From an uncultured delta proteobacterium (GTDB lineage: Bacteria > Desulfobacterota > Binatia > UBA9968), in the NCBI GenBank assembly GCA_963760795.1, contig CAVXEP010000030.1:32001-96000 (forward strand): a stretch of 64,000 nucleotides of DNA. The letters are read 5' to 3'. Made by a program: the position numbers and the translations under genes. This document shows positions 11,085 through 56,231 of this stretch, one piece after another; position 1 is the stretch's first letter; each line of letters starts with the position of its first letter. The notes beneath the pieces are model-generated. The model had not been told where the DNA came from. It made no database searches and saw only the letters and a program-made list of their open reading frames with translations.

Positions 11085-11664
11085 TTGTTGTCGCTCCGCG
11101 AACTCTCCTGCCTTGTTAGCACGAGTTCTATTTCATGTTTAACGATTGTCTCAAGTTATCAAACACTCAACCTTCTGAGAACTCGTAACTTCACCGCGAA
11201 AAAATATCGGACAGTCTATACTTGGCGGTCTCCATGCTCGCGCTCGCGCACCGGTGTCCACGCCACGCGAAGACTGCGACCAAATGGACGATTTTGACAT
11301 CACAGATTCTGCGATCGGCTGGCAGCAAATATTGTGCCTTAGTTGGGTATGCTGGTAAGGGTCCCTTGCGTTGATTCTAGACCTAACCCTGCCCCCATGC
11401 GTATCGAAACGTGGAAAAACAAAGAAGGGGGTTCGAGCGACTCAGCTGAGCAAGATAACTCAATACTCACTACCCCAACTACGCGGACCCCGACCACGGC
11501 GCTGGAAGACCTGACGCTGAACTTGATTTGCAAGATAGGCAGGTTATAAATGCCCCTGAGCCTAGTTTGACAACTCCCCGGTCCAGCGATACTGCTCGGG
11601 CGAGAAAAAACGTTGGTTTAAGTTTCCTATACATATAATCGGCACAAGACCAGGAGGTAGAGTC

Positions 11665-12261
11665 ATGTCAACCACAACGGAGCGCCCTCTCGCAGATGCG
11701 CTCACCGCAATCAAGTCGCGTCGCTCGGTGAAGGAGTACCTGTCCACCGAGATTCCTCGGGAGTGGATCGAGGAGCTGCTCGACGCCGCCCACTGGGCGC
11801 CCAACCACAAATTGACCCATCCCTGGCGTTTTCACGTGTTCTCCGGAGAGGGGCGCGAGCGATTGGTCGCAGCCCGTCAGGCGTCAGTACGTTGGGCCGC
11901 GGAGAAAAAGGGCGAGCAGGCGAGCGAAGAGGCTCTCAAATTCGCCCGGGATAAGTGTTATTCGTCCCCGGTCCTGATCATCGTTTCCATGGTTGGCGAT
12001 GAGAAAAAAATCACTGACCAGGAGAACTATGCGGCCTGCTGGTGCGCCATTGAGAATCTGCTGGTTGCCGCCAACGCGCGCGGCCTGGGCAGTTATCCCA
12101 GCACGGGCGACTGGATCGACCAAAACTTCGTTGGCCCAGTTCTCGGACTCACAGAAAAAGAACGGCCGGTGGCGTGCATTTTCTTGGGCTACTCCGAGCA
12201 GGCGACCATGGCCAAGCGCCTGCCCGTGGATCGCCATACCACCTGGTACACCCAAGCCTGA
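11665..12261 (+). CDS. Nitroreductase family protein (YdjA-like)
   Basis: IKSRRSVK, WAPNHKLTHPWRF, ENLLVAANARGLGS; AGGAGG RBS. Confidence 0.9.
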   Translation: MSTTTERPLADALTAIKSRRSVKEYLSTEIPREWIEELLDAAHWAPNHKLTHPWRFHVFSGEGRERLVAARQASVRWAAEKKGEQASEEALKFARDKCYSSPVLIIVSMVGDEKKITDQENYAACWCAIENLLVAANARGLGSYPSTGDWIDQNFVGPVLGLTEKERPVACIFLGYSEQATMAKRLPVDRHTTWYTQA

Positions 12262-12322
12262 AGTTCTCACCCGAGTAACTCAGTAAAATCCGCCTCTTGA
12301 GGCGGCCACAAAACTGCTGACA

Positions 12323-12357
12323 AGAGCAAAGGGGGTCGAACACCCCCCCTTTGCTCT
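12323..12357. terminator. Hairpin downstream of the nitroreductase gene
   Basis: AGAGCAAAGGGGG...CCCCCTTTGCTCT inverted repeat. Confidence 0.55.
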
Positions 12358-12402
12358 CGAGTGGGCTTCACCCCGCTCAACAATCCGTTGATTGAGACCA
12401 GC

Positions 12403-12642
12403 TCGCCGGAGTTTGTCAAAGCTGAGATCCATGGGTTTCTCGACTTTGTAATCTTCGCGCACGAGTTTCACCGATTGCACCGCGCCTGAGTGCGCTCATG
12501 ATAAGCGGTCGTCTTTTCGTGCATGCGAGACGGTAGCGCCACTCCTGCGCTGCACTGCGCGGGGCGGAAACCGCTAGCCATTTGGTTGATCACGTCATTG
12601 TCCCGGGTCCCGGTACGCCAATGGGTGCTGAAGTTTCCAATA
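12403..12642 (+). mobile_element. Degenerate IS91-family transposase remnant (zinc-binding domain), copy 1
   Basis: Across frameshifts it reads PEFVKAE..GFLD..IFAHEF.RL...ECAHDK..VFSC...SC...AETASHLVDHVI..VPVRQWVLKFP, matching the IS91 Tnp signature (FVKDEFDAFLECGILAHGFLRLRC...TAAHLVDHVIPxVPVRQWVLS). Confidence 0.75.
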
Positions 12643-12686
12643 TGCAAGATAGTCAGGCTATAAAAGTCTGACTTTGGCTCTTTTCC

Positions 12687-13682
12687 ATGATCGAAGTCGA
12701 CAAACTCACCAAATCCTTCTTCGTCCACAAGAAGGAGGCCGGCCTACTCGGCTCGGTGCGTTCACTATTCAAGCGCGAGAAAATCGAGAAGACCGCGGTG
12801 AGCGAGGTTAGCTTCCGAATCGGCGAGGGGGAAATCGTCGGCCTTGTCGGGGCCAACGGCGCGGGCAAGACGACGCTCGTCAAGATGCTCGCGGGGATCA
12901 TCTTCCCGACTCGCGGCGACGCACGCGTGCTGGGGTATCGGCCGTGGGAGCGGAACGACGACCTGCGGCGACAAATCGCCCTCATCATGGGCCAGAAGGC
13001 ACAACTTTGGTGGGACCTTCCGGCGGCCGATTGCTTTCTGCTGCTGAGGGAAATCTACCGCATCCCAAAGGAGCGCTTCGACGCGACGCTTGGCGAACTC
13101 GTCAAGGTGCTCGACGTGAAAGACCAGCTCAACATCCAGATCCGCCGGCTTTCGCTGGGCGAGCGGATGAAGATGGAGTTGATCGCGGCGCTGCTGCACT
13201 CCCCGCGCGTGGTCTACCTCGACGAGCCAACCATCGGGTTGGACATCACGGCGCAGCGTTCGATCCGCGAGTTCATCCTTCGGTACCAGTCAGAGCGGCG
13301 CCCCGCGATGATACTCACGAGCCATTACATGGAGGACATCGAGCGCCTTTGCCGGCGCATCATGATCATTCGCGACGGGACGATCGTGTACGACGGCAGC
13401 CTGCAGGAAGTCGTGACGGCGTACGCGCAGCACAAGGTCGTGACGGCGCATCTTCCCGAGGGGGCGGAACCGTGGGCGGACCGCGCGGAGTTGGAAAAGC
13501 TAGGCGAGGTGAAGGAGTGCACCGATGGCTCGGTGAAGATCCATGTTCCGCGCGCGAATGTTGCGCAGGCCGCGGCGCGTCTTGTGAATCTCACCAATGC
13601 GCGCGACCTGTCCGTTGAGGAAGAGGACATCGGGACGATCATCGAGTCGATCATGCAGGCGCGCGAGAAGGGACCGCAGTGA
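12687..13682 (+). CDS. ABC-2 exporter ATP-binding subunit
   Basis: Walker A GANGAGKTT, signature LSLGERM, Walker B YLDEPT, H-loop TSH. Confidence 0.93.
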   Translation: MIEVDKLTKSFFVHKKEAGLLGSVRSLFKREKIEKTAVSEVSFRIGEGEIVGLVGANGAGKTTLVKMLAGIIFPTRGDARVLGYRPWERNDDLRRQIALIMGQKAQLWWDLPAADCFLLLREIYRIPKERFDATLGELVKVLDVKDQLNIQIRRLSLGERMKMELIAALLHSPRVVYLDEPTIGLDITAQRSIREFILRYQSERRPAMILTSHYMEDIERLCRRIMIIRDGTIVYDGSLQEVVTAYAQHKVVTAHLPEGAEPWADRAELEKLGEVKECTDGSVKIHVPRANVAQAAARLVNLTNARDLSVEEEDIGTIIESIMQAREKGPQ

Positions 13683-14488
13683 GGCCGCGCCTCTTCTGGT
13701 CGATCACGACGATGCAGGCGCGGAAGATAATGAGTTATCGCGCCGACTTCTGGATCAGCGCCCTCTTCGGTTTCGTGATCCAGATGGGTGTCGTCTATTT
13801 CCTCTGGGACGCGATGTTCCGCGAATCGGGACAGGAGCGGATCGGCGGCTACACGTTCAGGCCGATGTTGATGTACTATGTGATGGTTCTGCTCATCAGT
13901 AAAGTCGTCAACGTGCGGATGGGAGACGGCATGGTTGCGGGTGATATCTACGACGGCGGACTTTCGCGCTACATCCTATATCCGACGAATTACTTTCTCT
14001 TCAAGTTCGCCCAGCGCCTCGGGGACCTCACGCCGGCACTGGTCCAGATCACGGTTTTCGGGACCTTCTGCGCACTGCTTTTCCGCACGCCGGAACTCGA
14101 TATCGACGCGGCGGGCATGCTCATGGGTGCGGTGTCGCTGTTTGCGGCGACGACGCTGATGTTTGCGCTGACGATCCCGTTCGAAACAATCGCGTTCTGG
14201 GCCGACAACGTGTGGAGCCTGAATGTAATGCTCCGATTCGCGGTCCAACTCTTCGGCGGGATGATGATGCCGATGACGCTGTATCCCGAATGGGCGCGCG
14301 CGGCATTGCACTGGCTCCCGTTCCGGTATGTCTTCGACGTCCCGGTCAACGTCATCCTCGGCAGGATCGGCGTCGGCGAGTGGCTGCTCGGGCTGGTTGT
14401 TTGCGCCGGCTGGCTTACCATCGTCTCGGCCGTCACGGCGCTGCTGTGGCGGCGCGGTTCGCGGACCTACACGGGGGTGGGGATGTGA
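13679..14488 (+). CDS. ABC-2 family permease (ABC2_membrane_6-like)
   Basis: YRADFW, DIYDGGLSRYILYP, multiple TM helices; GTGA overlap with the ATPase gene. Confidence 0.85.
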   Translation: MRPRLFWSITTMQARKIMSYRADFWISALFGFVIQMGVVYFLWDAMFRESGQERIGGYTFRPMLMYYVMVLLISKVVNVRMGDGMVAGDIYDGGLSRYILYPTNYFLFKFAQRLGDLTPALVQITVFGTFCALLFRTPELDIDAAGMLMGAVSLFAATTLMFALTIPFETIAFWADNVWSLNVMLRFAVQLFGGMMMPMTLYPEWARAALHWLPFRYVFDVPVNVILGRIGVGEWLLGLVVCAGWLTIVSAVTALLWRRGSRTYTGVGM

Positions 14489-15273
14489 TCCGCTACTTTC
14501 GGCTCTACCTCTATTTTCTGCAATTTTCTTTCAGCCGGGCGATGGAGTTCCGTCTCGATTTCTTTTTTCGAATCGTGATGGATTGCATGTTCTACGTCGT
14601 GCAACTCGCCTTCTTCTTCATCCTGTACGAGCACACGAGGCTGCTGGGGGGATGGAACCTCGATCAGATCATCATCTTCACATCGGCGTGGCTCTTTCTC
14701 GATGCGGTGAACATGACTGTTTTCTCGAACAACATGTGGTGGCTCCCGATCCTGATCAACCGGGGAGACCTGGACTACTATCTGGTGCGCCCCGTTTCGA
14801 CGCTCTTCTTCGTCAGCTTTAGAGATTTCGCGGCGAACTCGTTCGTCAATCTCGTCATCGCAACGGGGATCATGGCGTGGTCGCTGATGCGCTATCCGCA
14901 GTCGTTGGGCGCGGGGCGGGTTCTCCTCTTCTGCGTGATGCTGGCGATCGGCTCGTTCATCTTCTACGTGATCCAGATGGCGTTCCTGATTCCGACTTTT
15001 TGGCTGCATTCCAGCAGTGGGTTCTGGGAGCTGCGCTTTCAGGTCGAGAAGTATGCCGAGCGTCCGGACCAGATTTATTCGCGTTGGCTGCGACGCATTC
15101 TCCTATCCGTCCTGCCGCTCGCGTTTCTGATTTCGGTGCCGACACACGCGCTGTTTTCGGGACTCGACTGGAAGGGCGTGCTGCACACTGTCGTCATCGT
15201 GGTAGGATCCTTCGCGTTCCTCATCGGTTTCTGGAGGCTCGGGCTCCGGTCGTATGTTTCGGCGTCGTCGTGA
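14485..15273 (+). CDS. ABC-2 family permease (second subunit)
   Basis: MEFRLDF, GGWN, GDLDYYLVRPV, C-terminal GLRSYVSASS; GTG start overlaps the previous stop. Confidence 0.85.
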   Translation: MIRYFRLYLYFLQFSFSRAMEFRLDFFFRIVMDCMFYVVQLAFFFILYEHTRLLGGWNLDQIIIFTSAWLFLDAVNMTVFSNNMWWLPILINRGDLDYYLVRPVSTLFFVSFRDFAANSFVNLVIATGIMAWSLMRYPQSLGAGRVLLFCVMLAIGSFIFYVIQMAFLIPTFWLHSSSGFWELRFQVEKYAERPDQIYSRWLRRILLSVLPLAFLISVPTHALFSGLDWKGVLHTVVIVVGSFAFLIGFWRLGLRSYVSASS

Positions 15274-15296
15274 GAATGGCAGCAGGGGCAGCGTTG

Positions 15297-15477
15297 CCAG
15301 CACGGACGACTGGATCGACCAAAACTTCGTCGGCTCAATTCTGGGACTCACAAAGAAAGAGCGGCCGGTGGCTTGAATTTTCTTGGGCTACTCCGAGCCG
15401 GCGACCATGGCCAAGCGCCTGCCCGTGGATCGCCATACCACCTGGTACACCGAGGCTTGAAATTCTCACCTGAGTAA
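15297..15477 (+). pseudogene. Duplicated 3' end of the nitroreductase gene (direct repeat of 12098-12278)
   Basis: 181-nt colinear repeat with about 16 mismatches counted by eye, including a TGC>TGA stop. Confidence 0.92.
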
Positions 15478-15489
15478 AATGGGGCCACC

Positions 15490-15796
15490 GTGCCGGAGTT
15501 TGTCCGAGCCGAGTTCGATGTCTTTCTCGAATTCGGAGTCGTCGCGCACGAGTTTCTCCGACTGCGCCGCAACTGGGGTATCAGACTGTGTCGCGATACC
15601 GTTCATGGTTCGAGAACCTCACCACGAACGGTATTGCTGAGTCGTGAATTAAAATACTTATCCGTTCGCCCTGAGCTACCGTCGAAGGGCTCCGAGATAT
15701 TGCCAGACACTGTGGTGCGCGGCGCAGGGCGGAAACCGCCGCCCACTTGCTTGATCACGTCATCCCCTGGTCCCGGTGCGCCAATGGGTGCTATCG
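15490..15796 (+). mobile_element. Degenerate IS91-family transposase remnant, copy 2, interrupted by a MITE-like element
   Basis: VPEFVRAEFDVFLEFGVVAHEFLRLR ... CGARRRAETAAHLLDHVIP.VPVRQWVLS; homologous to 12403-12642. Confidence 0.75.
15582..15712. repeat. REP/MITE-like palindromic element
   Basis: Hairpin ACCGTTCATGGTTCGAGAACCTCACCACGAACGGT (15598-15632) and related unit CCGTTCGCCCTGAGCTACCGTCGAAGGG (15662-15689); imperfect terminal inverted repeats; absent from IS91 copy 1. Confidence 0.6.
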
Positions 15797-15950
15797 ACTG
15801 TTGACCATCAACCAACTTTGCGTCAATAGGATAGGTAGATTTCGCAAAGCGGTCCAGATCGCGCAAGGGGTTAATTGCTGGAAACATAACCGTTTTTTCT
15901 GCCGGCATCTTTCGCCAAGTTTGCCGATAAACAGCCGCGAGGCAGCACCT

Positions 15951-17156
15951 ATGAAACGAAGCATGGAACGAATTCTCACTACCCATGTCGGCAGTCTGCC
16001 GCGGCCGGTTGACCTGCGCGCCATGTGGGCGAAGAAATCTAGTGCAGCTGAGGACGAAGCCGCACTGCAATCGCGGCTGCGCTCCGCCATCGGCGAGGTC
16101 GTGCTGGCGCAGCAAAGCGCCGGCATCGATATTCCGAACGACGGCGAGTTCGGCAAGCCCATGCGCGCCGCCACCGACCGCGGCGCTTGGGGCAACTATA
16201 TCTTCGACCGCCTCTCCGGCTTCACGGCAACTTCGCCGCAGACCATCGCGCCCGATACCGCCGCGCCCGGAGCAGCGATGCGCGTCGTCGGCGTGCGCTG
16301 GGAACAACGCGAGTTCGCTGAATTCTACGCCGACACCGGACTCGGCGCACCGAGCACCGCCGCCATGCGGCCAACCTGCACCGGACCCCTCGCCTACACC
16401 GGGCAAACTTTTTTGCGCGAGCAGCTTGCGAGCTTAAAGGCCGCTACCTATGGCGCCGGCATCGGCGAAGCATTCGTCAGCGCCATCGCCCCCGGCAGCC
16501 TGGAGATGTTCTGCCGCGATCAGAACAGTTATTACCCGACAACTGAGAAATTCTTGGAAGCGCTCGCCGCCGCGCTGCGCGAAGAATATCGCGCGATCAT
16601 CGACGCCGGGTTCATCTTGCAACTCGACGATCCCGGCTTGCCCGGCGCCTGGGACATGCTCGATCCGCAGCCAAGCGTCGAGGAGTACCGACGCTACGCA
16701 TCGCAGCGCGTCGAGATTTTGAATCACGCGCTCGATGGCATCCCGATGGAGCGCGTGCGCTTTCACATCTGCTGGGGCAGCTGGCATGGTCCGCACACCA
16801 CTGATTTTCCGCTGCGCGACATCGTCGATATCATGCTCAGGGTCAACGCCCAGGCGTACCTGGTCGAAGCCGGCAACGTCCGCCACGAACATGAATACAA
16901 AGTTTGGCGCGACGTGAAATTGCCCGCCGGAAAAATTCTCATCCCGGGAGTCGTCAGCCACTCCACCGATCTCATCGAGCACCCCGAACTGGTGGCCGAC
17001 CGTATCGTCGCCTTCGCTGAAATCGTCGGGAGAGAAAACGTCATCGCCGGCACCGATTGCGGCCTAGGCGGTCGCGTGCATCCGCAAATCGCCTGGGCCA
17101 AGCTGCGTGTGCTGGGCGAAGGCGCGGCGATCGCGAGCAAGAAGCTGTGGAGCTGA
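15951..17156 (+). CDS. Cobalamin-independent methionine synthase II family (MetE C-terminal-like) protein
   Basis: ILTTHVGSLPRP, NDGEFGK, LQLDDP, Zn ligands HICWG and AGTDCG. Confidence 0.88.
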   Translation: MKRSMERILTTHVGSLPRPVDLRAMWAKKSSAAEDEAALQSRLRSAIGEVVLAQQSAGIDIPNDGEFGKPMRAATDRGAWGNYIFDRLSGFTATSPQTIAPDTAAPGAAMRVVGVRWEQREFAEFYADTGLGAPSTAAMRPTCTGPLAYTGQTFLREQLASLKAATYGAGIGEAFVSAIAPGSLEMFCRDQNSYYPTTEKFLEALAAALREEYRAIIDAGFILQLDDPGLPGAWDMLDPQPSVEEYRRYASQRVEILNHALDGIPMERVRFHICWGSWHGPHTTDFPLRDIVDIMLRVNAQAYLVEAGNVRHEHEYKVWRDVKLPAGKILIPGVVSHSTDLIEHPELVADRIVAFAEIVGRENVIAGTDCGLGGRVHPQIAWAKLRVLGEGAAIASKKLWS

Positions 17157-17355: not shown

Positions 17356-18000
17356 ATGAAAATCGCTCTTTACTACGCCCCCAACACCTGCGCGCTCGCT
17401 CCCTATGTCACGCTGACCGAAGCGGGCGCCGACTTCGAGGTCCGGCCGCTCAATTTCCGCAAGCGGCAGAATTTCTCGCCCGAGTATCTAAAACTAAACC
17501 CGAAGCACAAGGTGCCTGCGCTCGTGGTCGACGGCAAGATACTGACCGAGAACGTCGCCATCCATCAATGGGTCCATCGGACCTTCCCCAACGCGAAGAT
17601 CCTGCCCGCCGATCCATGGGATCAGTTGCAGGCGATCTCGCTGCACGCCTGGTGTGCCAGCGGCATTCACCCCTATCTCAGCCGGATCAACAACCCGCCA
17701 AAGGTCTCTGACGCAACCGGCGCGTCCGACAGCGTCATTAAGTTTGCGACAGAAGGACTGTTCGAGAACTTCCGGATCGCCGACGATTTGCTGGCCGGGC
17801 GTGAGTACTTCTTCGATCACTTTACCGCCCCGGACGCGCACTTCTTTTGGTGCTGCCGCCGCGCCAGCCAGTTGGAGGTAAACATCTCCGGCTTCCCCAA
17901 CGTCGTCGCGCATTTCCAGCGCATGCAGGAGCGCCCGAGCGTCAAGAAGCTGATCGCCTACGAGAAAGAAATTAATGAATCGTTTGCCAAGACGGCCTAG
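17356..18000 (+). CDS. Glutathione S-transferase family protein (beta-class-like)
   Basis: LYYAPNTCA, LNPKHKVPAL, LTENVAI, FTAPDAH. Confidence 0.9.
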   Translation: MKIALYYAPNTCALAPYVTLTEAGADFEVRPLNFRKRQNFSPEYLKLNPKHKVPALVVDGKILTENVAIHQWVHRTFPNAKILPADPWDQLQAISLHAWCASGIHPYLSRINNPPKVSDATGASDSVIKFATEGLFENFRIADDLLAGREYFFDHFTAPDAHFFWCCRRASQLEVNISGFPNVVAHFQRMQERPSVKKLIAYEKEINESFAKTA

Positions 18001-18082
18001 ACAACCACAGCAACTTCGATTGTTCGATGGCCGACCTACTCAAAAGGAAATTCCTATAATCTATCATTTGAAGGAGAGCTTC

Positions 18083-18862
18083 GTGGCGAAACGACGAAAC
18101 CCATCAATGCTTGTCATCATCAGCTGCGCCCTGGCACTGTCGACCGGCTGTGCGACGCAACAGGAGTTGACGCCTATGCGGGCAGCCGAGACGCCGCTGA
18201 TCGCTAAGGGGCGGGCGCTCTTCAACGACGTGAAGCTGTCGGCAGATGGCAACTGGTCGTGTGCTTCCTGCCATCCGAATCACGGTCACACCAACAACAA
18301 GACGTACGTCGGGCTTGGCGTCGTGCCGGACGGCGACCCAAATGGGCGCAGCACGCCGACGCTTTGGGGCGCGGGCACCCGGCAGGCATTCTCATGGGCG
18401 GGCACTGCCCCGAGCCTGCAGGCCAATATGCGCGGTATCATCGTCAATCGCATGAAGGGACCGGAGCCTTCGGCGGAGACGCTGGATGCCCTGGAAGCCT
18501 ACGTGAAGTCCCTCGGCTATCCGCCAAACCCCAACTTGAACTCCGATGGAACTCCGTCGGCTGTGGCGCCCGCCGCGGCCAAGCGCGGATACAACGTCTT
18601 CGTCCGGGCGGGCTGTCAGGCGTGCCATCTTCCGCCGACCTTCGACAAGAAGGAAGTGGAGGAGGTCTTCTCCGGAGGAAAGTTCAAGGTTCCCTCGCTG
18701 CGCGTGGTCTCTCTTACCGCCCCGTATTTTCACGACGGCCGCTTCGCCACGCTCGAGCAGACCGTTCGCTTCATGTGGGAGTTCGTGCAAAAGGCGGGAA
18801 CTACAGAAAAGCTAACGGAGAACGATCTGCGCGACCTGGTGGAGTACCTGCGCATCCTGTGA
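18083..18862 (+). CDS. Di-heme cytochrome c (cytochrome c peroxidase/MauG-like) lipoprotein
   Basis: Two CxxCH motifs (CASCH, CQACH), FKVPSLR...TAPYFHDGR, lipobox LSTGC. Confidence 0.82.
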   Translation: MAKRRNPSMLVIISCALALSTGCATQQELTPMRAAETPLIAKGRALFNDVKLSADGNWSCASCHPNHGHTNNKTYVGLGVVPDGDPNGRSTPTLWGAGTRQAFSWAGTAPSLQANMRGIIVNRMKGPEPSAETLDALEAYVKSLGYPPNPNLNSDGTPSAVAPAAAKRGYNVFVRAGCQACHLPPTFDKKEVEEVFSGGKFKVPSLRVVSLTAPYFHDGRFATLEQTVRFMWEFVQKAGTTEKLTENDLRDLVEYLRIL

Positions 18863-19008
18863 GCAGCCCGGCCGGGAGGAAATGCCAACAGAGAAAGTCT
18901 GAGGGTCAGCCGTGATATTTTATCGGTTCTGCTAGAAACCCCTCAAGTTTTTGTTTGTTCATTTAAATCTACGTTGACAAGCGACGATATCGCCTTCATC
19001 GTTTTCTC

Positions 19009-19068
19009 GTCAAAAAGCTGCTCGCCTACGAGAAAGAAGTGAATGCAGGGTTGGCCAAGACAACCTAG
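19009..19068 (+). pseudogene. Duplicated 3' end of the GST gene 17356-18000 (remnant 1)
   Basis: VKKLLAYEKEVNAGLAKTT* versus VKKLIAYEKEINESFAKTA* (17941-18000), 60 nt colinear. Confidence 0.85.
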
Positions 19069-19271: not shown

Positions 19272-20225
19272 ATGATCGGCCGATCAAGCTTCCGCATTCG
19301 AGCTCTTTTGCTGATCGTGCTCATGACGCATTTGGCCGGCTGTGCGCGCCGGTTTCCGGCGACTGAAGTCACGCCGATAAAGGCCGCATACGCCGCCGAG
19401 CTCCAGCGATATCTATTGTCTAACAAGCGCGACGTAGCGCAATTCAGGTTGCGCGGGCCCTTTGCCGTCATCGAGCGCAGAGACCTGGAAATCCCGCTGG
19501 CTGCCGGTCTCACGGTGGCAGCGGATTTATACCTGTGCGGGGCAGCCCTCAAGGCTCCTCTGATCATCGTGTTGCACGGTCACGACAATTCCAAGGAGGA
19601 CCATGCCTTCCAAGCGATGCACTTGGCCTCCTGGGGTATGCATAGCATTGCTCTCAACTTGCCCAAACACGGCCCGTGGATCGCCAACGGCAGAACCCTT
19701 GCCAGGCTCGTCGACGCCATTCATCGGACGCCGCAGCTGGTCGACGGCCGCATAGACGCGGACAAGATCATCCTGGTGGGCCACTCATTCGGCGCAACCG
19801 CCGTCGCCACCGCGTTGGGGGAACGCGCCCCCGCACTGGGCGGCGTGCTGCTCGATCCCGCCGGGATCGGCCGGCAATTGCCGCAGTTGCTGCAGCGGAT
19901 CACCGTTCCGGTGATGGTGATCGGGGCCGACGAGGACATCCGGCCGACCCGCAACCGCGGGCAATTTTACCGCTTCATTCCGGCCGCTGTCGGCGAGATC
20001 TCGATCCGGGACACGCTCCACGAAGATGCGCAGTATCCGAACCAGCACACGCTGCGCCCATTCGAAGACGACCCGGATGATACCGAGGAAGCGCAGATTG
20101 CATTCGTCAGCGCGCTGACCGCCTCCGCCTTCGGTCTTGCGGCCGCCGGCACCATAGACTATGGCTGGGACAGCTTTGAACAAGCCATTAAGAACGGCAC
20201 GTTTTTCAACGCGCGGAGGAAGTAA
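19272..20225 (+). CDS. Alpha/beta hydrolase lipoprotein (chlorophyllase/dienelactone hydrolase-like)
   Basis: Lipobox LAGC, oxyanion LHG, nucleophile GHSFG, LLDP. Confidence 0.8.
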   Translation: MIGRSSFRIRALLLIVLMTHLAGCARRFPATEVTPIKAAYAAELQRYLLSNKRDVAQFRLRGPFAVIERRDLEIPLAAGLTVAADLYLCGAALKAPLIIVLHGHDNSKEDHAFQAMHLASWGMHSIALNLPKHGPWIANGRTLARLVDAIHRTPQLVDGRIDADKIILVGHSFGATAVATALGERAPALGGVLLDPAGIGRQLPQLLQRITVPVMVIGADEDIRPTRNRGQFYRFIPAAVGEISIRDTLHEDAQYPNQHTLRPFEDDPDDTEEAQIAFVSALTASAFGLAAAGTIDYGWDSFEQAIKNGTFFNARRK

Positions 20226-20230
20226 TCGTC

Positions 20231-21142
20231 ATGGGTTTAGTCAAATCGACAGTGAAAGTATGGATCACCGCGCCAGTGCGCCTGGCCGTTGTGATCGGCA
20301 TTGTCGTGCAGGCGCTTGGTCTGCGAGCCGGCTGGCCACAAGAACCGCCTCAACCGCGACTCGACGAGGAAATCACCAAACAGGAAGAAATATTCCGCAA
20401 ACAGGGCGCCGATGTTCCCCGCGGCTACGTCACGAATCGGGGGCTCTCGGACTACGCGGAGCTTCTTCCCACCGGCTTCTGCGACGCCCTCGGCAGGCTG
20501 GGTAGCTCGGACCGTTGGCTGGATATCGGCGCGGGCGCCGGGCAGGCCATACTGGCCTACTACGCCCCCGAAAACGCCGCGGCGCCGGCTGAAAAATGCG
20601 TCCGGCCCGGCGCTAGGGCGCGCGCGGTCGCGCTGTCCATCGAGGACCGCCGGACCGACGAGTGGCGACAGCGAGCCACGAGCGTGGGCGATGACCGTAT
20701 ACGCTATCTCTCCGGCAGGCGCCTGCGGCAATATTCGCCCGAGGAGCTGGGAAAATTCCAGATTATTACCGACGTGTTCGGCGGCTTCACCTATACCGAA
20801 GACTTGTCCCAGTTCGTTGACAAGGTGCTGAGCTTGCTGGAGGTCGGCGCTGGCTTCTACACGTTGGTGCCAGGCGTGCACTTAGAGGATGGCAAGGATA
20901 GACTCGGCAGCTTTTACCTTACCGAACTGGAGAATGCCGCGGGCCGCCCCGAGAAAGTGTGCTCCTGGCTGAAAAAGACCGCCTGCGTGAAAGTCACCTG
21001 CGAGTCGAAGAGCGACTGGAAAAGGCCCACCGAGCTGATAAAAATCGAGAAGGTCTGCAGCGATGTCTCGGTCCCGCGCATGAAATTATTGGAATTCGTG
21101 GCGGGGTATCCTCCCGACAGGCGATTCCAACTGGACCGGTAG
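20231..21142 (+). CDS. Putatively secreted class I SAM-methyltransferase-fold protein, paralog 1
   Basis: Signal-peptide-like N-terminus; motif I WLDIGAGAG; ITDVFGGFTY; six Cys conserved with paralog 2. Confidence 0.65.
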   Translation: MGLVKSTVKVWITAPVRLAVVIGIVVQALGLRAGWPQEPPQPRLDEEITKQEEIFRKQGADVPRGYVTNRGLSDYAELLPTGFCDALGRLGSSDRWLDIGAGAGQAILAYYAPENAAAPAEKCVRPGARARAVALSIEDRRTDEWRQRATSVGDDRIRYLSGRRLRQYSPEELGKFQIITDVFGGFTYTEDLSQFVDKVLSLLEVGAGFYTLVPGVHLEDGKDRLGSFYLTELENAAGRPEKVCSWLKKTACVKVTCESKSDWKRPTELIKIEKVCSDVSVPRMKLLEFVAGYPPDRRFQLDR

Positions 21143-21208
21143 GAGTGATAAATCTTGGCTTACAGTTCACAAACCGGAAAGATCAATGACTGTCCAGTTG
21201 GATGGTTT

Positions 21209-22333: not shown

Positions 22334-22375
22334 GCCATTAAGAACGGCAGGTTTTTCAACGCGAGGAGGAAATAA
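22334..22375 (+). pseudogene. Duplicated 3' end of the alpha/beta hydrolase gene 19272-20225
   Basis: AIKNGRFFNARRK* versus AIKNGTFFNARRK* (20184-20225), with the same 5-nt spacer to the next ATG. Confidence 0.85.
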
Positions 22376-22380
22376 TCATC

Positions 22381-23283
22381 ATGCGTTCAGGCAAATCGTC
22401 AGTGCTAGGATGGATGACCGTGGGAACAGGTGTAGCCGTTTTGATGATCCTGCGAGCGCTTGGTCCAGCAGCTGGCTGGGCACAGGAACCCGCTCAATCG
22501 CGGATTGAGGAGGAAACCTCGAAGCAGAAAAAAATCTATCAAAGCCGGGGCGCCGATGTTCCCGACGGCTACGTCACCAATCGAGGGCTCTCGAACTACG
22601 CGGGACTCCTTCCCTCCGGCTTCTGCGATACGCTCGGCAGGCTGGGCACCTCGGACCGATGGCTGGATATCGGCGCGGGTGCTGGGCAAGCAATACTCGA
22701 CTACTACGCACCCCCTGACGCCGCGGCGCCGGCGGAAAAGTGCGCCCGGCCCGGCGGTTTAGCGAGCGCAGTCGCGATATCCATAGAGGACCGCCGGACG
22801 GACGCGTGGCACCGGCTGGCCGCGAGCCTCGGCGAACGTATACGGTATCTCACCGGCAAGCTCCTGCGGAACTATTCGCCCGAGGAACTTGGAAAATTCC
22901 AGATTATTACCGATGTCTACGGCGGCTTCTCCTATACCGACGACTTGTCCCGGTTCATGGAAAAGGTGCTGAGCGTTCTCGAGGTCGGCGGTGGCTTCTA
23001 CACGATCGTGCAGTACGTGCATTTACAGGCTGCCAAGGACAGCCCCGCCACCTGGTATCAGACCGAGCTGGTGGATGCAGCCGGCCGCGGCGAGAAAATG
23101 TGCTCCTGGCTGAAGAAGACCTCCTGCGTGCAAGTCAGCTGCGAATCGAAGAGCGCCTGGGACCCGCCCACCGAGCAGATCAACATCCGGAAGGTTTGCA
23201 GCGACGTCTCTGTCCCGCGCATGAAGCTAGTGAAGTTCGAGGCGGGGAATCCTCCCAACCGGCGATTCCAACTTGAGCCGTAG
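22381..23283 (+). CDS. Putatively secreted class I SAM-methyltransferase-fold protein, paralog 2
   Basis: Full-length homolog of 20231-21142; signal cleavage site AGWA-QE; WLDIGAGAG. Confidence 0.65.
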   Translation: MRSGKSSVLGWMTVGTGVAVLMILRALGPAAGWAQEPAQSRIEEETSKQKKIYQSRGADVPDGYVTNRGLSNYAGLLPSGFCDTLGRLGTSDRWLDIGAGAGQAILDYYAPPDAAAPAEKCARPGGLASAVAISIEDRRTDAWHRLAASLGERIRYLTGKLLRNYSPEELGKFQIITDVYGGFSYTDDLSRFMEKVLSVLEVGGGFYTIVQYVHLQAAKDSPATWYQTELVDAAGRGEKMCSWLKKTSCVQVSCESKSAWDPPTEQINIRKVCSDVSVPRMKLVKFEAGNPPNRRFQLEP

Positions 23284-23502
23284 GGATTGTGGAGTTGAAT
23301 TCACAGCGGCAGTGGGTAATGAACAAAACAAGTAGCTGGAAAGTCTAGAAGTAGATTGCTATGTCACCCCCCCGACGTCTCCGCGCCGAACTGGCAATTT
23401 CGTTTAACATTGCTCGGAGGGCTGGTGATTTTGTTGGGAATCATTGCTTGACGGGGGGTCTTGTGACTTGTGCCCGGGTCGCAAAAAAAAGCGTGATTTT
23501 AA

Positions 23503-30818: not shown

Positions 30819-31106
30819 GATTATTTTCTCCTAGTGTTGACCGCTGTTATGGATAGGATTTTAAACCGCCTTTTATTTCTATGGTCGGAACCTTATTGCA
30901 CGACCGGGAGAATTGTCAATTCGTTGTCTACTTGACGAAAAACCCACTGTTGTACCGGTCGGCTCGCCCGGAGAGCGGTTGGGACACGCAGAAAGGTTCC
31001 ATATGAAGTCTTACGTTGGTAGGGGGCACCAGTAGCGTCAAGCCTTTACTTTAAAGAAACTACGAACCCTACTATAAGCTAAAGACCTCGACCCTATAAA
31101 AGCCCT

Positions 31107-31297
31107 CCGATCTCGTCCAGCACCCGTAACTGGTGGCCAATCGCATCATCACGTTCGCTGAAATCGTCGGCCAAGAAAACGTTAGCGCCGGCACCGAGTG
31201 CGGCCTAGGCGGACACGCACACCCGTAGATCGCGTGGGCGAAGTTACGTGTCCTGCGCGGCGGCGCGGCGATCGCGAGCAGGAAGCTGTGGAGTTGA
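31107..31297 (+). pseudogene. Duplicated 3' end of the MetE-like gene (direct repeat of 16966-17156)
   Basis: 191-nt colinear: DLVQHP*LVANRIITFAEIVGQENVSAGTECGLGGHAHP*IAWAKLRVLRGGAAIASRKLWS*. Confidence 0.92.
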
Positions 31298-32594: not shown

Positions 32595-32674
32595 GACGTT
32601 GTTTACCAACTGGACAAATTCTGCCGCCTTTGACCTATGACCGGAAAATGGCCGCTGAGCAACGCTAGTCCACT
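32595..32674 (+). repeat. 80-bp direct repeat, left copy (partner 35628-35707)
   Basis: Shared core TGGACAAATTCTGCCGCCTT.GACCT..GACCGGAA.ATGGCCGCTGAGCA.CGCTAGTCCACT. Confidence 0.9.
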
Positions 32675-32804
32675 TAGTAAAAGACGTCCAGTTATCCCCC
32701 CTTCATTCTCCTGGTCCTGCTGCGACAATAGGTGCTGTCATTTCCAATCTGCAGGATAGTCGGGTTATAAAAGTCTGAGCCTGTGTCCCCTTATTGATAT
32801 CATC

Positions 32805-34823
32805 GTGGATATGGATAAACCGTTCGATCTACCGGCGACAACATCAGTATTCTCCCGAGCCTGGTACTCGTCTTCCATCGCCGACTTTCTACAAACCCAA
32901 CCAGAGGCAATTATCGGGCGACTGGCAACAAACAGCGAGTTTTCTTTGCTTTCGACTCAAAAGGATGCGTGGTTGGTAGAAATTGGCTTCCTGCAAGAAC
33001 AGCTCACCGGTTTAACCGGTGCGTTGTTTTTGGAGTTCAACATTCCTCGGATGGGTCGGCGGATAGATGCAGTGCTGCTCCTCGGCCCTGTAGTGTTCGT
33101 GATTGAGTTCAAAATTGGTGAAAGCAATTTTGACCGCGCGGCGTCAGATCAGGTTTGGGATTATGCGTTAGACCTGAAGAATTTTCACGACGCCAGCCAT
33201 TCTGCTGCGATCGTTCCGATTCTCATTGCAACCGAGGCCAGTGAATCCGCCGAGTTGAAACTCTACGCCGATGCCGACAAGGTACACCGCCCCATGCACG
33301 TGCATCCTGGCGCATTTCGGCAAGCGATTGACCTTGGACTCCAGGCCGTAACCGACGCAAATATCGATAACCAAAAATGGCAGAACGCTCCGTATCGTCC
33401 CACGCCCACGATTGTTGAGGCCGCACGTGCTCTCTACGCGCAACATTCGGTTGAAGCGATCGCCCGTTACGATGCAGGAGCACAGAATCTGCGCGTCACA
33501 TCATCTCGCATTGAAGAACTCGTCGATGAGGCAAGAGCACAAGGGCGCAAACTCATCTGCTTTGTTACCGGTGTTCCAGGAGCTGGCAAAACACTGGTTG
33601 GGCTAAATGTTGCAACTCGACGCCGGGACATCAACCAACCGACACACGCCGTATTTCTTTCGGGGAACGGTCCGCTCGTGGCTGTGCTCCGTGAGGCGCT
33701 GACCCGCGACGAGGTCGCCCGTCAGAAAACTCTTGGCGTTCGAATACGCAAGGGCAAAGTTGGCGAGAGCGTCAAAGCTTTCATCCAGAACGTTCATAAT
33801 TTTCGCGACGAAGCTTTGGTCGACTCCGGCCCTCCGGCCGAGCATGTGGTGATTTTTGACGAAGCTCAACGGGCTTGGAATTTGCGACAAACCGCGAATT
33901 TCATGAAGCGAAGAAAAAATCGGCCAGGGTTCTCCCACTCCGAGCCGGATTTCCTGATTTCATGCATGGATCGCCACACCGAATGGGCGGTAATTGTTTG
34001 CCTTGTCGGCGGTGGACAGGAAATCCATTTAGGCGAAGCCGGCATCGATGCGTGGCTTGATGCTGTGAATTCGAGATTCCCACATTGGCACATGCATATT
34101 TCATCAAGACTCACCGATACCGAATATGCGGCTGGCAAGGTCTTGGAAGCCGTCCGCCAGCGGCAGAATACTCACTTTGACGACTGCCTGCATCTCGGCG
34201 TGTCAATGAGATCGTTCCGCGCTGAAAATGTGTCGGCGTTTGTCAAAGCGCTGCTGGACTGCGAAAAGCGACCAGCGCGAGAAGCCTTCATACAACTTGC
34301 AGATCGTTATCCCATCGCTGTGACCCGCGACTTGAATCGGGCCAAGCAGTGGGTTCGCTCCCATGCCAGGGGTACGGAGCGATTCGGATTGGTCGCCTCT
34401 TCGAAAGCGCAACGTCTCAAACCTCACGCGATTGATATTCGAGTGGACGTTGATCCGGTGCATTGGTTTCTCAACGACAGAGAAGATACCCGATCAAGCT
34501 ACTATCTCGAAGATGCTGCCACAGAGTTCCAGGTGCAGGGTTTGGAATTGGATTGGACGTGTGTGACTTGGGACGGCGACCTGCGGTTCACCGGATCCGG
34601 CTGGAGCTATCATGACTTTCGAGGTGATCGATGGATCAATATCGGAAATCTTGACAACCGACGTTACCTGCTCAACGCTTACCGGGTCCTGCTGACTCGC
34701 GCTCGGCAAGGAATGATAATCTTTGTGCCGACAGGCGAGCCGAATGATCCGACTCGGTCACCTGAGTTTTACGATTCAACATACAACTTCCTTATCAATG
34801 TGGGCGTTACGGCTCTGCGATAA
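32805..34823 (+). CDS. DUF2075 (Schlafen group 3 DNA/RNA helicase domain) protein with N-terminal PD-(D/E)XK-like nuclease
   Basis: EFNIPRMGRRIDAV...VIEFK nuclease motif; Walker A GVPGAGKT; Walker B IFDEAQR; QGLELD; YRVLLTRARQG. Confidence 0.85.
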   Translation: MDMDKPFDLPATTSVFSRAWYSSSIADFLQTQPEAIIGRLATNSEFSLLSTQKDAWLVEIGFLQEQLTGLTGALFLEFNIPRMGRRIDAVLLLGPVVFVIEFKIGESNFDRAASDQVWDYALDLKNFHDASHSAAIVPILIATEASESAELKLYADADKVHRPMHVHPGAFRQAIDLGLQAVTDANIDNQKWQNAPYRPTPTIVEAARALYAQHSVEAIARYDAGAQNLRVTSSRIEELVDEARAQGRKLICFVTGVPGAGKTLVGLNVATRRRDINQPTHAVFLSGNGPLVAVLREALTRDEVARQKTLGVRIRKGKVGESVKAFIQNVHNFRDEALVDSGPPAEHVVIFDEAQRAWNLRQTANFMKRRKNRPGFSHSEPDFLISCMDRHTEWAVIVCLVGGGQEIHLGEAGIDAWLDAVNSRFPHWHMHISSRLTDTEYAAGKVLEAVRQRQNTHFDDCLHLGVSMRSFRAENVSAFVKALLDCEKRPAREAFIQLADRYPIAVTRDLNRAKQWVRSHARGTERFGLVASSKAQRLKPHAIDIRVDVDPVHWFLNDREDTRSSYYLEDAATEFQVQGLELDWTCVTWDGDLRFTGSGWSYHDFRGDRWINIGNLDNRRYLLNAYRVLLTRARQGMIIFVPTGEPNDPTRSPEFYDSTYNFLINVGVTALR

Positions 34824-35627: not shown

Positions 35628-35707
35628 GACGTGGTTGACCAAATGGACAAATTCTGCCGCCTTCGACCTCCGACCGGAAGATGGCCGCTGAGCAGCGCTA
35701 GTCCACT
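35628..35707 (+). repeat. 80-bp direct repeat, right copy
   Basis: Colinear with 32595-32674. Confidence 0.9.
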
Positions 35708-54538: not shown

Positions 54539-55947
54539 TCACGGCTGGTTCAAGCCGGTTTCGCCTTCCGCCAAATCGTTCATCAGCTCGGCCACGGACG
54601 CGAGTTTTTCTAACGCGCGCGCTTTGCCGATGACTTTATCCTGGCGTGCCGACGGCATTCTCCCACGCGCACAAGCGCGGAATTTGGCCTCGACTTCGGC
54701 CGGCGACATGGGATTGTTGGGATGGCCTTTGGGAAAAATGACCTCGACTTCCCGGCTCTCGCCGCTTTGCAAAATCAGTTTCACCACGGCCGGGTAGCTG
54801 CCGGGCGTGTACTTGTTCAAACTCGCGTCGGTGCGGACCGAGACTCGCGCCATCGCTTCTCTCATTTCGGGTTGCAACCAGCGCCCCGGGGCAAATTGCC
54901 CTTCAGAAATTTCGCCGTCCGAAAGCGCCGCTGCCGCGAGATAGTAGAAGCTATGATCCGCGCTTTCGCGGCTTTCCGGGTAGCGCCGTTGTTGGTCCGC
55001 CGCTTGAGTGCTGACGATCGGGATATCGGCCATCACCACCTCGATGCGCTTAACTTCTCGCGCCGGGTCGGCGATGCCGGCGCGCGCTTGAAGCACGCCG
55101 GCGACCATGGTCTGGGCCGTGCCGATACAGGGATAGGCTTTGATAGCGGAGGTCAGGATGCGATAGCGTTCGCCGATCGGTTGAGCGAGAAGATCCAATT
55201 TTGCCCCAGCGAGCATGCCGGTGCTCAGCCCGCGCGGGTGTTCGATCACCCCTAGTGATCCGGTCACACCCTCGGCGGCAAACAACGAACACAGTACCGC
55301 TTGGGATGCCACCATTGCGTTGGCGTTCGCTTTGGAATTGGCCAGCTGCCCGGTGCGCACGACGGCGAGCGTGTTGCCATGGGTGGCCGACAGCGCCGCC
55401 GCATGGGCAAGCTGCTCCGGGTTCAATCCCATCAGCCGGCCGGCGATCAAAGGCGCCGCCAATGCCGACGCGGTCGTGTGATCCCAGGTGCCGCGAGCCG
55501 GAATGATGTCCTGCATGCGGCAGTAAATCTCGTAGCCGAGCGCTACGCTGGCGATCACGCTCAGCCCTGAGGCGCCAAACTTTTCACCGACGGAAAGCGC
55601 CACCGCGATATTGTCGCTCGGATGGCCCATCTGTCCGGGACCGATGTAGGCATCGTTCAAGTCCAGCGAGCGAATCAAAATTCCATTGAGCAACACGGCC
55701 TGCGGCAGATTAAACCGCCGCGATGAACCGATCACGGTGCAGTCCGGGTTGCCGCCGAGTTGGCAAGCACGCGCGACGCGCGGGCAAATGCCGGCTCCTC
55801 GGTCGCGGCCAAAGCGCAGCCGATGGCGTCAAAAATCAGCGCCTTGGTATGCTCAACGACCTCCAATGGAATTGCCGCAGCGGCAACGCTGAGCACGTTG
55901 CCGGCGATTTGTTGCACCAGGGTAGCTGGTAAATCAGTGCTGGCCAT
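54539..55947 (-). pseudogene. MmgE/PrpD family protein with a 1-nt frameshift near 55763
   Basis: N-terminal part (DAIGCALA) in ORF 55732-55947; the rest (LDLND, GHPSD, IKAYPC, ADHS..Y, PKGHPNNPMS) in ORF 54539-55735. Confidence 0.82.
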
Positions 55948-56231
55948 AGATCACGAAAAGCTTTACTCCGAGTTGGCCCGAGTCGCAACACGCTTTTTCT
56001 GATCGGCGTGCTGCCCCGTTTCCAATTCGAGACTGACACAAAATCTTTGCGAACGGTTACGAAGAGCAAAACCGACAGAAACGTCAAGCTTCAAGACTCG
56101 ACCGCGAAGCTTGCCCCGAAGCTATCCATTACCATTACGTGATGGCGGGTCAATTCATGGCAGCGGTATTTGCACGGAGCAAGAAAGTCGAGAAGTAAAT
56201 GTCTAACCCGGTGATTTCCTCCGTCTTTAAA

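Follow-up and report, generated by a model that had tools for sequence, protein, structure and literature searches.

The assembly of resistance regions in clinical bacteria is attributed to ISCR elements, and the capture model that explains this rests on comparison of recent, nearly identical structures. In complex class 1 integrons the order is 3'-conserved segment (3'-CS), ISCR1, captured gene and a second 3'-CS, sometimes followed by a second ISCR1. For this geometry a passage of PMC7707992 proposes that an aberrant rolling-circle product forms a circle which is integrated by homologous recombination, and according to parts of PMC6218425 ISCR1 lies 24 bp behind sul1, variable DNA and outward promoters are located on its oriIS side, and transposition of ISCR elements has never been demonstrated experimentally. 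Here we describe the same geometry, with a non-resistance cargo, in an uncultured soil lineage. Within 64,000 nt of an uncultured delta proteobacterium (Binatia; contig CAVXEP010000030.1, positions 32,001-96,000; G000:C30:32001-96000 in our numbering, G000 being the source genome), hereafter the window, an operon for an ATP-binding cassette (ABC) transporter of the ABC-2 type lies between two copies of a nitroreductase gene tail, each followed by the relic of an ISCR-like transposase gene. The operon is best explained as horizontally acquired cargo in a chromosomal ISCR graveyard. This explanation was chosen because the insertion sits exactly beside a resident homologous copy, the cargo appears foreign, and hallmarks of ISCR flank the anchor gene, the nitroreductase gene N.

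As in ISCR1 integrons, the end of a gene located directly upstream of a terIS-less ISCR is duplicated around foreign cargo, with the cargo downstream of the transposase, and, as in multicopy ISCR1 forms, ISCR accompanies the second anchor copy too. About 30 nt separate the nitroreductase stop from the start of the relic, a spacing similar to that of ISCR1 behind sul1, and the place of N relative to ISCR is that of sul1 and the 3'-CS relative to ISCR1 as outlined in parts of PMC6218425. Unlike those integrons, the locus described here is chromosomal, belongs to an uncultured soil host and is not part of an integron; its anchor is a nitroreductase gene and its cargo an ABC-2 exporter; and its transposases are fossils of 250-320 nt, with no oriIS at the cargo junction and with repeats that have diverged by 10-20%.

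One-ended transposition of IS91, IS801 and IS1294 and tail-targeting prophages provide two further comparisons. With the former the locus shares the transposase family, an oriIS-like end (GTTTAA.TTTCCTATAC) and the co-duplication of DNA upstream of the transposase 5' end. The family assignment is based on an intact homolog in a genus relative (G007:C10), a 464-aa frame cut at a contig end, in which Zn_Tnp_IS91 (PF14319; 4e-19) covers residues 66-152 and Y2_Tnp (3.9e-30) residues 196-416. This homolog scores 439 bits with the NCBIfam model ISCR_clade_Ia and 111 bits with the generic IS91 model, which is below the 125-bit cut-off of the latter. Unlike in the IS91 group, nothing is active here. 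IS91 has a target tetranucleotide rule; none is evident at the junctions of this locus. The prophages e14 and phage 21 integrate in the 3' end of Escherichia coli icd and bring along a replacement tail, and a diverged duplicate gene 3' end at the far side of inserted DNA is what they have in common with the nitroreductase locus. By contrast, no integrase is found in or beside the insert, and it is the attached tail of the nitroreductase gene that is native (96% identity to the relative G019), the displaced one being 90% identical.

The direct repeat that brackets the intact operon is composite. Self-BLAST aligned the nitroreductase tails 12087-12278 and 15286-15477 with 89.6% identity (E 1.4e-68) and the relics behind them in two segments, 12405-12483 with 15492-15570 (81% identity) and 12545-12629 with 15710-15792 (82%), which bears out the preliminary description in placing a nitroreductase 3' end plus relic on both operon flanks. 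Taken slightly wider (12080-12278 and 15279-15477), the tails are 88% identical over 199 nt. Two indels separate the repeat copies, a hairpin region of about 110 nt on the left (12283-12390) and a small repeat of 115 nt on the right (15582-15697). The hairpin block is also found in G019, G013 and G002 and in the right copies of two JGI metagenome contigs, L171 and L172 (codes beginning with G denote compared genomes, G019 being the nearest relative and collinear).

Judged by its identity to the G019 gene (95.5% over the gene, 96% over the tail), the left N is the native gene. The right tail covers only the last 58 or so codons of N, contains an internal stop and is about 90% identical to every N ortholog compared. 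Over 175 nt the two tails differ at 18 sites (six first, three second and nine third codon positions; about eight synonymous), corresponding to a synonymous divergence (dS) of 0.235, based on eight synonymous changes, and a nonsynonymous divergence (dN) of 0.074. Half of the differences are unique to the right tail, with a codon-position spread of 4:3:2, and include the change from Cys to stop at 15374-15376; the other nine are polymorphic and mostly at third positions, where the right copy often holds the majority state. Nine unique changes so distributed on top of an allele-like divergence are the pattern of a tail that was a functional allele when it branched off and decayed as a pseudogene later. 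The preliminary description had read many of the mismatches as synonymous third-position changes, as expected between functional alleles. Half of this stands: nine differences are at third positions, about eight are synonymous, and the divergence, including the dN/dS comparison that had been suggested, is allele-like. The other nine fall on first and second positions, and the right tail is a decayed pseudogene with a stop.

Based on their collinear match to residues 75-154 of the intact genus homolog, and not on Pfam, the relics are identified at the sequence level as remnants of a transposase gene, ISCR-like and of the IS91 family, namely of the part that encodes the zinc domain. For the left relic the match covers residues 76-154 of the homolog (tblastn, E 3.6e-9), and at the DNA level this relic is 70% identical to the intact gene over 229 nt (blastn, E 2.6e-19); the right relic matches residues 75-100 (69%), 123-142 (85%) and 141-151 (100%) in three successive frames. 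These alignments agree with the relic positions given earlier (12403-12642 and 15490-15796), and the earlier assignment to IS91/ISCR also finds support in weak but collinear matches to ISCR_clade_Ia (profile positions 56-82, E 0.0021; 105-127, E 0.067). The first 70 or so transposase codons are absent from both copies, homology starting near residue 75 about 30 nt past the nitroreductase stop, and both end near residue 157, before Y2_Tnp; they are fragments, not elements. The preliminary description had proposed to check the relics with hidden Markov models of Zn_Tnp_IS91 and Y2_Tnp and to regard the lack of a match as speaking against it. Taken literally, such a lack is what we found: PF14319 matched none of eight relic reading-frame fragments and was not above cut-off anywhere in a six-frame scan of the whole G000 genome, and the HUH/Y2 domain PF04986 gave no match in that genome at E<=10. 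PF14319 is above cut-off in 11 of 31 genus genomes (a tally that includes the unpublished G004).

Several other matches were considered and discarded. The sole Pfam match among the eight fragments, to the InsA zinc ribbon (E 0.026), is at chance level, as are two plasmid records found by tblastn with the right relic frame (E 0.2), which lie under an oxidoreductase gene. The relics are not matched by the IS91 copies of G014, G013, G017, G023 and G011, which are members of a different subfamily. In a family relative, G079 (loci L150, L167 and others), the ISCR transposase has 13 matches, most of them 5'-truncated with the 3' end kept, a pattern that may reflect the biology of the element.

The empty site is preserved in close relatives. 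Collinearity of G019 with the window extends from 2.9 to 26.4 kb, to either side of the locus, but G019 is devoid of 12495-15801 and with it of the operon and the second repeat copy. G013 has the same short form, in which nitroreductase gene, relic and metE-like gene follow each other without ABC genes. In both relatives the relic end and a conserved motif termed 'P' (see below) are located upstream of the metE-like gene, and both share a deletion in the relic middle that the left copy of G000 lacks. G000 differs from G019 by a dS of 0.17-0.19 and from G013 by one of 0.35-0.43; G000 and G019 are therefore the closer pair, with G013 outside, which makes a single acquisition in the G000 line more parsimonious than several losses. 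Past 26.4 kb, G019 matches only window positions 54561-56007 plus a weak paralog; about 28 kb of the window (26430-54560) are missing from G019 or located elsewhere in it.

By its ATPase motifs and membrane subunits the operon is predicted to encode an ABC-2 type exporter. The closest NCBIfam model of the ATPase is drrA, and no NCBIfam name was returned for either permease. No close relative of the exporter is characterised; as the preliminary description had put forward, it may export a drug or a peptide. One ATPase closest to drrA and separate ABC-2 membrane subunits in one overlapping operon are reminiscent of DrrAB-type exporters; unlike in DrrAB, the ATPase remains below the drrA cut-off (194.8 versus 312.45 bits) and the two PF06182 permeases differ from each other. 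Among 30 genus genomes, 27 match the operon DNA over at most 126 nt around Walker A, the rest of the 2.6 kb being unmatched, and a search of 122 other order genomes with the permease 2 protein gave nothing at E<=1e-10. The best match of this protein among representative genomes of 185,579 species is in another phylum, a Sumerlaeota metagenome-assembled genome with 65% identity, followed by Thermoanaerobaculia, Gemmatimonadota and many Planctomycetota at 53-60%; in JGI metagenomes two contigs of the same lineage match at 97%, and then nothing above 64%. A donor was therefore not found above 65% in the former or, past the two same-lineage contigs, above 64% in the latter. The order of the three genes is identical in 73 of 80 distant loci, and at none of these loci was a nitroreductase or ISCR match detected. 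Taken together with its absence from the site in relatives, the operon thus appears foreign to the host lineage. Vertical inheritance at this site, which the preliminary description had named as a finding that would count against it, did not emerge: G019 and G013 have no ABC genes there, and no ortholog was found at the DNA level in the 30 genus genomes or at the protein level in the 122 order genomes. When operons were simulated at a comparable neutral load of 5%, all three frames stayed open in only 12 of 2000, which argues that the exporter has probably been under selection since its arrival. For the host, this would mark the exporter as a selected, recent addition.

Linkage of the nitroreductase gene to an ISCR oriIS end is an observation that goes beyond the preliminary description. 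Transposase copies in other genera of the family, partial as well as full ones, have a common 3' end, TTGACA - N17 - TATAGC ... GGTCGTTTAAAAATCCTATTC. When the region 11566-11632 upstream of N was aligned to ISCR 3' ends of family relatives, the scores were 50, 37 and 29, where the maxima of shuffled sequences were 23, 22 and 22. Its terminal 17-nt pattern, GTTTAAGTTTCCTATAC, is exact at C30:43616-43632; in the genome it is exact at four places and has one mismatch at five more. The ATG of N follows the oriIS end after 32 nt, so that an oriIS|gene junction is present for the nitroreductase. Preceded by an oriIS and joined behind its stop codon to a 5'-truncated transposase, N itself is, by all sequence indications, an ISCR-linked gene, and this oriIS, which belongs to another remnant than the two relics, provides independent support for ISCR elements having shaped the locus. 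Judged by eye, most of 14 relatives inspected have the region before N, among them G027, a member of another family. There (L022, C2:1506000-1514000) the nitroreductase gene has 88% nucleotide identity and the same ISCR 3' non-coding region before it, which suggests transfer of the oriIS-nitroreductase unit between families. Nine oriIS-like ends with at most one mismatch are present in G000 (among them C22:294287, C32:202142 and C35:5576); they are solo ISCR ends in a genome without an intact transposase of this clade.

The 'P' motif, about 45 nt long, has four matches to its core, TGCAAGATAGNCAGGNTATAAA, in the whole genome and none in a reversed control. All four copies are located on one contig and strand, before N, before the ABC operon, before a Schlafen-like helicase gene at 32805 and at C30:121986, and each is accompanied by a short stub of the transposase gene. 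Upstream of the nitroreductase gene the motif is conserved in G013, G002 and G021. A sigma-70 scan of 11400-12760 found no promoter, and 'P' is therefore not called one on that basis. The possibility that 'P' or the sequence downstream of it is a degenerate oriIS was dismissed since scores were at shuffle level and the intact copies examined do not have 'P' at their 3' ends. A third relic end plus 'P' (32640-32778) lies directly upstream of the Schlafen-group-3-like helicase gene (32805-34823), whose block is flanked by an 80-nt repeat pair (32595-32674 and 35628-35707; 90% identity). Coordinates of the features at the locus are compiled in Table 1.

Table 1. Features of the nitroreductase-ABC-metE-like locus (positions in the window)
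Feature	Position	Strand	Basis or remark
'P' motif copy A, about 45 nt, with short transposase-derived stub	11520..11555	+	pattern search; core 11529-11550
ISCR oriIS-containing terminal region, TTGACA...GTTTAAGTTTCCTATAC	11566..11632	+	ends 32 nt before nitroreductase ATG
Nitroreductase gene N, intact, native	11665..12261	+	Pfam PF00881, E 7.8e-28; 95.5% identity to G019 gene
Left tail copy, within intact N	12087..12278	+	96% identity to G019 tail
Hairpin-rich block 'H', in G000 in the left copy only	12283..12390	+	alignment; terminator-like stems
Left relic, putative 5' part of IS91/ISCR transposase gene, frameshifted with stops	12393..12641	+	about residues 72-157 of G007 homolog; weak ISCR_clade_Ia match
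'P' motif copy B	12643..12672	+	23 nt upstream of ABC ATPase start
ABC ATPase, predicted	12687..13682	+	PF00005, E 1.5e-22; Walker A GANGAGKT, signature LSLGE
ABC-2 permease 1 (ABC2_membrane_6), predicted	13679..14488	+	PF06182, E 1.2e-26; start overlaps ATPase stop
ABC-2 permease 2 (ABC2_membrane_6), predicted	14485..15273	+	PF06182, E 1.4e-34
Filler between permease stop and right tail start, 12 nt	15274..15285		same junction in L171 and L172; bridged by X5 contig
Right tail copy, pseudogene fragment	15286..15477	+	in-frame TGA at 15374-15376
Right relic, part 1	15480..15581	+	about residues 75-100; tblastn 69% over 26 aa; ISCR_clade_Ia E 0.0021
Multi-copy small repeat of 115 nt, MITE-like, in place of right relic middle	15582..15697		copies in genus
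Right relic, part 2	15698..15797	+	about residues 123-151; tblastn 85% over 20 aa and 100% over 11 aa; 88% DNA identity to intact gene
MetE-like gene (Meth_synt_2), native right flank	15951..17156	+	PF01717; 93-94% identity to G019

The junctions are real. Parts of the 4-kb stretch are present in 20 metagenome runs from 14 studies, and junctions were compared in four runs from four studies (codes beginning with X denote runs); runs that shared few of the words of the stretch were set aside as evidence. On the left, where the relic end is followed by the 45-nt 'P' and, 23 nt on, by the ATPase start, contigs of X5 (12364-12734) and X7 (12497-12778) bridge the junction; that between ABC genes and tail is bridged by a 568-nt contig of X5 (14804-15370), and the right one by a contig of X1 (15609-15895), which may be the source sample. 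L171 and L172, 96.4% and 98.1% identical over the operon, both have the ABC|tail junction. Their right copies keep the hairpin block, do not have several of the tail lesions of G000, and carry tails 91-94% identical to the left copy. At its end the right relic has CAATGGGTGCT, a sequence similar to a CATTGGCGCTG box that precedes the metE-like gene in G019, G013 and G022. Since G022 has neither N nor relic there, the box is native sequence, and the right junction looks like a microhomology join with the native region upstream of the metE-like gene. Possible microhomologies at the insert edges are CATGRTC (left) and CAATGG/CATTGG (right). The G000 right copy has a hairpin-less join in common with G022, where it lies at the junction of N and relic; alleles of this segment have thus kept recombining.

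Taking into account these data we favour, with some reservation, a model in which the operon came linked to a nitroreductase-tail/ISCR segment and recombined beside the copy already resident, in the manner suggested for complex integrons with ISCR1. An ISCR-like element of the IS91 family would have lost its 5' end and become fused to the end of the nitroreductase gene, by which the tail of that gene would have assumed the role that the 3'-CS has for ISCR1. The incoming DNA molecule would have consisted of the ABC operon, a 190-nt nitroreductase tail and the 5' part of ISCR, in this order, and might have originated from rolling-circle read-through. Recombination would have taken place beside the resident nitroreductase gene and its ISCR relic, most likely by homologous integration of a circle with a microhomology join at the right edge. 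In this order of events, repeat, ABC operon and repeat would have come to lie upstream of the metE-like gene; the transposase copies would have decayed afterwards and the exporter frames stayed open, the exporter probably being expressed from 'P', a putative promoter in this position just upstream. The event is old, as judged from the 10-20% divergence of the repeats. ISCR-like capture, as put forward in the preliminary description, is thus plausible: the succession of tail plus ISCR, cargo, and tail plus ISCR fits the ISCR1 model as given in a passage of PMC7707992, and the oriIS before the nitroreductase gene supports it further, yet there is no oriIS at the ABC genes and the individual steps are deduced.

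Several observations weigh against this model. A plain single crossover into a site like that of G019 predicts 'P' after the right copy, and none is found there, so that an additional deletion of about 95 nt between CAATGGGTGCT-like boxes, or another path, is needed. The element ends that the preliminary description had proposed to look for were recovered only in part. Apart from the oriIS before the nitroreductase gene, none was detected after the left, the right or the third relic, all scores against four ISCR 3' ends being at shuffle level; an oriIS|cargo junction is absent for the ABC operon, sequence past the left relic and 'P' scoring at shuffle level as well; and a terIS was not found upstream of the relics in a search that used no terIS model. 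The genome-wide search for intact IS91 copies, likewise proposed earlier, detected no intact IS91/ISCR transposase in G000. The relic distances, based on 87-88 sites, carry no information on which copy is native, the right relic being closer to all other sequences including the intact gene; an attempt to tell native from incoming relic, which used pairwise distances and, with the intact gene as outgroup, a four-point check, was abandoned since the sums were too close. With 57-63% GC the operon does not stand out, and the GC profile has no foreign signature. Furthermore, the dS of the tails is indistinguishable from that between G000 and G019, which makes an in-situ duplication near that split possible. 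Finally, the mechanism may be generic, as a second strain-specific insertion (18000-19008) is tail-flanked with no transposase relic seen beside it.

The in-situ duplication just mentioned is part of the alternative that survives best, although we regard it as unlikely. It assumes two events: ABC genes landed beside a dead relic by illegitimate or microhomology insertion, and a local copy of nitroreductase tail, hairpin block and ISCR was later placed behind the permease stop, either by one-ended rolling-circle transposition of a then-active element or by segmental duplication. The right copies of L171 and L172, with their hairpin block and their 91-94% tail identity to the left copy, speak for it, because they imply that the ancestral right copy was closer to the local left copy than that of G000 is now. 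So do a tail dS within error of the G000-G019 divergence, the possible microhomologies at both insert edges and the lack of an oriIS at the ABC junction. However, two independent events at one spot are required, neither intermediate is found in G019 or G013, and there is no intact transposase that could drive a local hop. Moreover, at 12162 and 12253 the left copy and G019 have derived states in common, where the right tail keeps ancestral ones; this points to a right-tail lineage older than the G000-G019 split, though at two sites only.

Less likely again is an IS-independent origin, in which a circle of repeat plus ABC genes looped out between the repeats of a relative and re-integrated homologously in a naive genome, the relic providing passive homology. 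This would agree with relics that are long dead and with the mosaic of tail and hairpin-block states among G000, L171, L172 and G022, which is indicative of ongoing allele recombination. Comparable structures nearby also favour it, namely the CCP_MauG insertion (18000-19008), absent from G019 and flanked by a 61-nt GST-tail repeat of 84% identity with no relic seen beside it, and the repeat pair around the Schlafen-like helicase block. Yet it merely shifts the origin of the first repeat-ABC-repeat arrangement to another genome, the truncated tail 12 nt behind the permease stop still requires an illegitimate or rolling-circle step, and ISCR hallmarks are found on both sides of the nitroreductase gene (oriIS upstream, relic downstream).

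That the ABC operon and both repeats were ancestral to G000, G019 and G013 and that the relatives deleted the operon is improbable. In line with such losses, both relatives keep the relic end and 'P' as in the left copy of G000, further on have the CATTGGCGCTG box resembling the right relic end, and share the relic-middle deletion. The box, however, is native, as it occurs in G022 without nitroreductase gene or relic; at least two losses would be needed on the dS tree; the operon is found in none of 122 other order genomes; and if the operon had simply been deleted from repeat to repeat, no 'P' motif would remain. A chimeric contig assembled across the repeats of two co-occurring strains is hardly credible and was rejected, for while the assembly is of the metagenome type (6.58 Mb, 35 contigs, 88.9% complete, 6.2% contamination) and related strains co-occur in the same runs, the ABC|tail junction does not lie within a repeat and is shared by L171 and L172, and contigs of X5, X7 and X1, obtained in other studies, bridge the junctions.

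The recombination model with an ISCR-linked incoming segment thus being preferred, the locus lends support to the view that genes are generally gained by ISCR-type capture as one of several routes. Its age allows steps to be dated by pseudogene decay, a collinear relative has the empty site, and G000, the L171/L172 strains, G019, G013 and G022 form a natural set of variants on which the model can be tested. It is tempting to speculate further that gene capture by ISCR has left in this genus a fossil series of natural and non-clinical origin. The oriIS-nitroreductase unit may have spread through the genus and into another family; its tail may anchor successive cargo, the ABC exporter and possibly the Schlafen-like helicase block (32.6-35.7 kb); and the vehicle may be an internally deleted 'mini-ISCR', a transposase 5' stub fused to the 45-nt 'P', whose outward-facing end may now be the promoter of whatever lies downstream. 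We regard these ideas, taken jointly, as doubtful. If true, the series would be an independent record of the circle-plus-recombination model, and a non-autonomous ISCR derivative would act as a portable promoter.

The genes at and around the locus follow each other in the order nitroreductase N (11665-12261), ABC ATPase, two ABC2_membrane_6 permeases, MetE-like protein and GST (17356-18000). The PF00881 match of N is full-length (residues 16-176; profile positions 1-167 of 167), and a scan of 11300-16100 detected no Rfam family at E<=0.1. The 115-nt small repeat, for which no Rfam family was found, has many copies at 80-90% identity in G023, G021, G011 and G016, one further copy in G000 (C1:6143-6238) and a very high summed contig depth in soil metagenome runs. 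Other duplicated gene ends are present in the window. The 61-nt 3' tail of the GST gene (17940-18000) recurs at 19008-19068 with 84% identity, the two copies surrounding a gene for a CCP_MauG-type di-haem peroxidase (17975-18862) that is absent from the collinear G019. The gene-attached copy is the divergent one and the displaced copy matches relatives, and it is therefore this case that fits the icd pattern best. The 3' end of the metE-like gene, which belongs to a family with many paralogs of about 68% identity within the genus, recurs as well (16963-17156 at 31104-31297; 194 nt, 82% identity), the second copy being located between a gene for a solute-binding protein and an FGE-sulfatase gene. 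Two unannotated genes of about 300 aa (20184-21143 and 22334-23284) are paralogs with 80% identity and enclose a Sel1-repeat gene with internal repeats.

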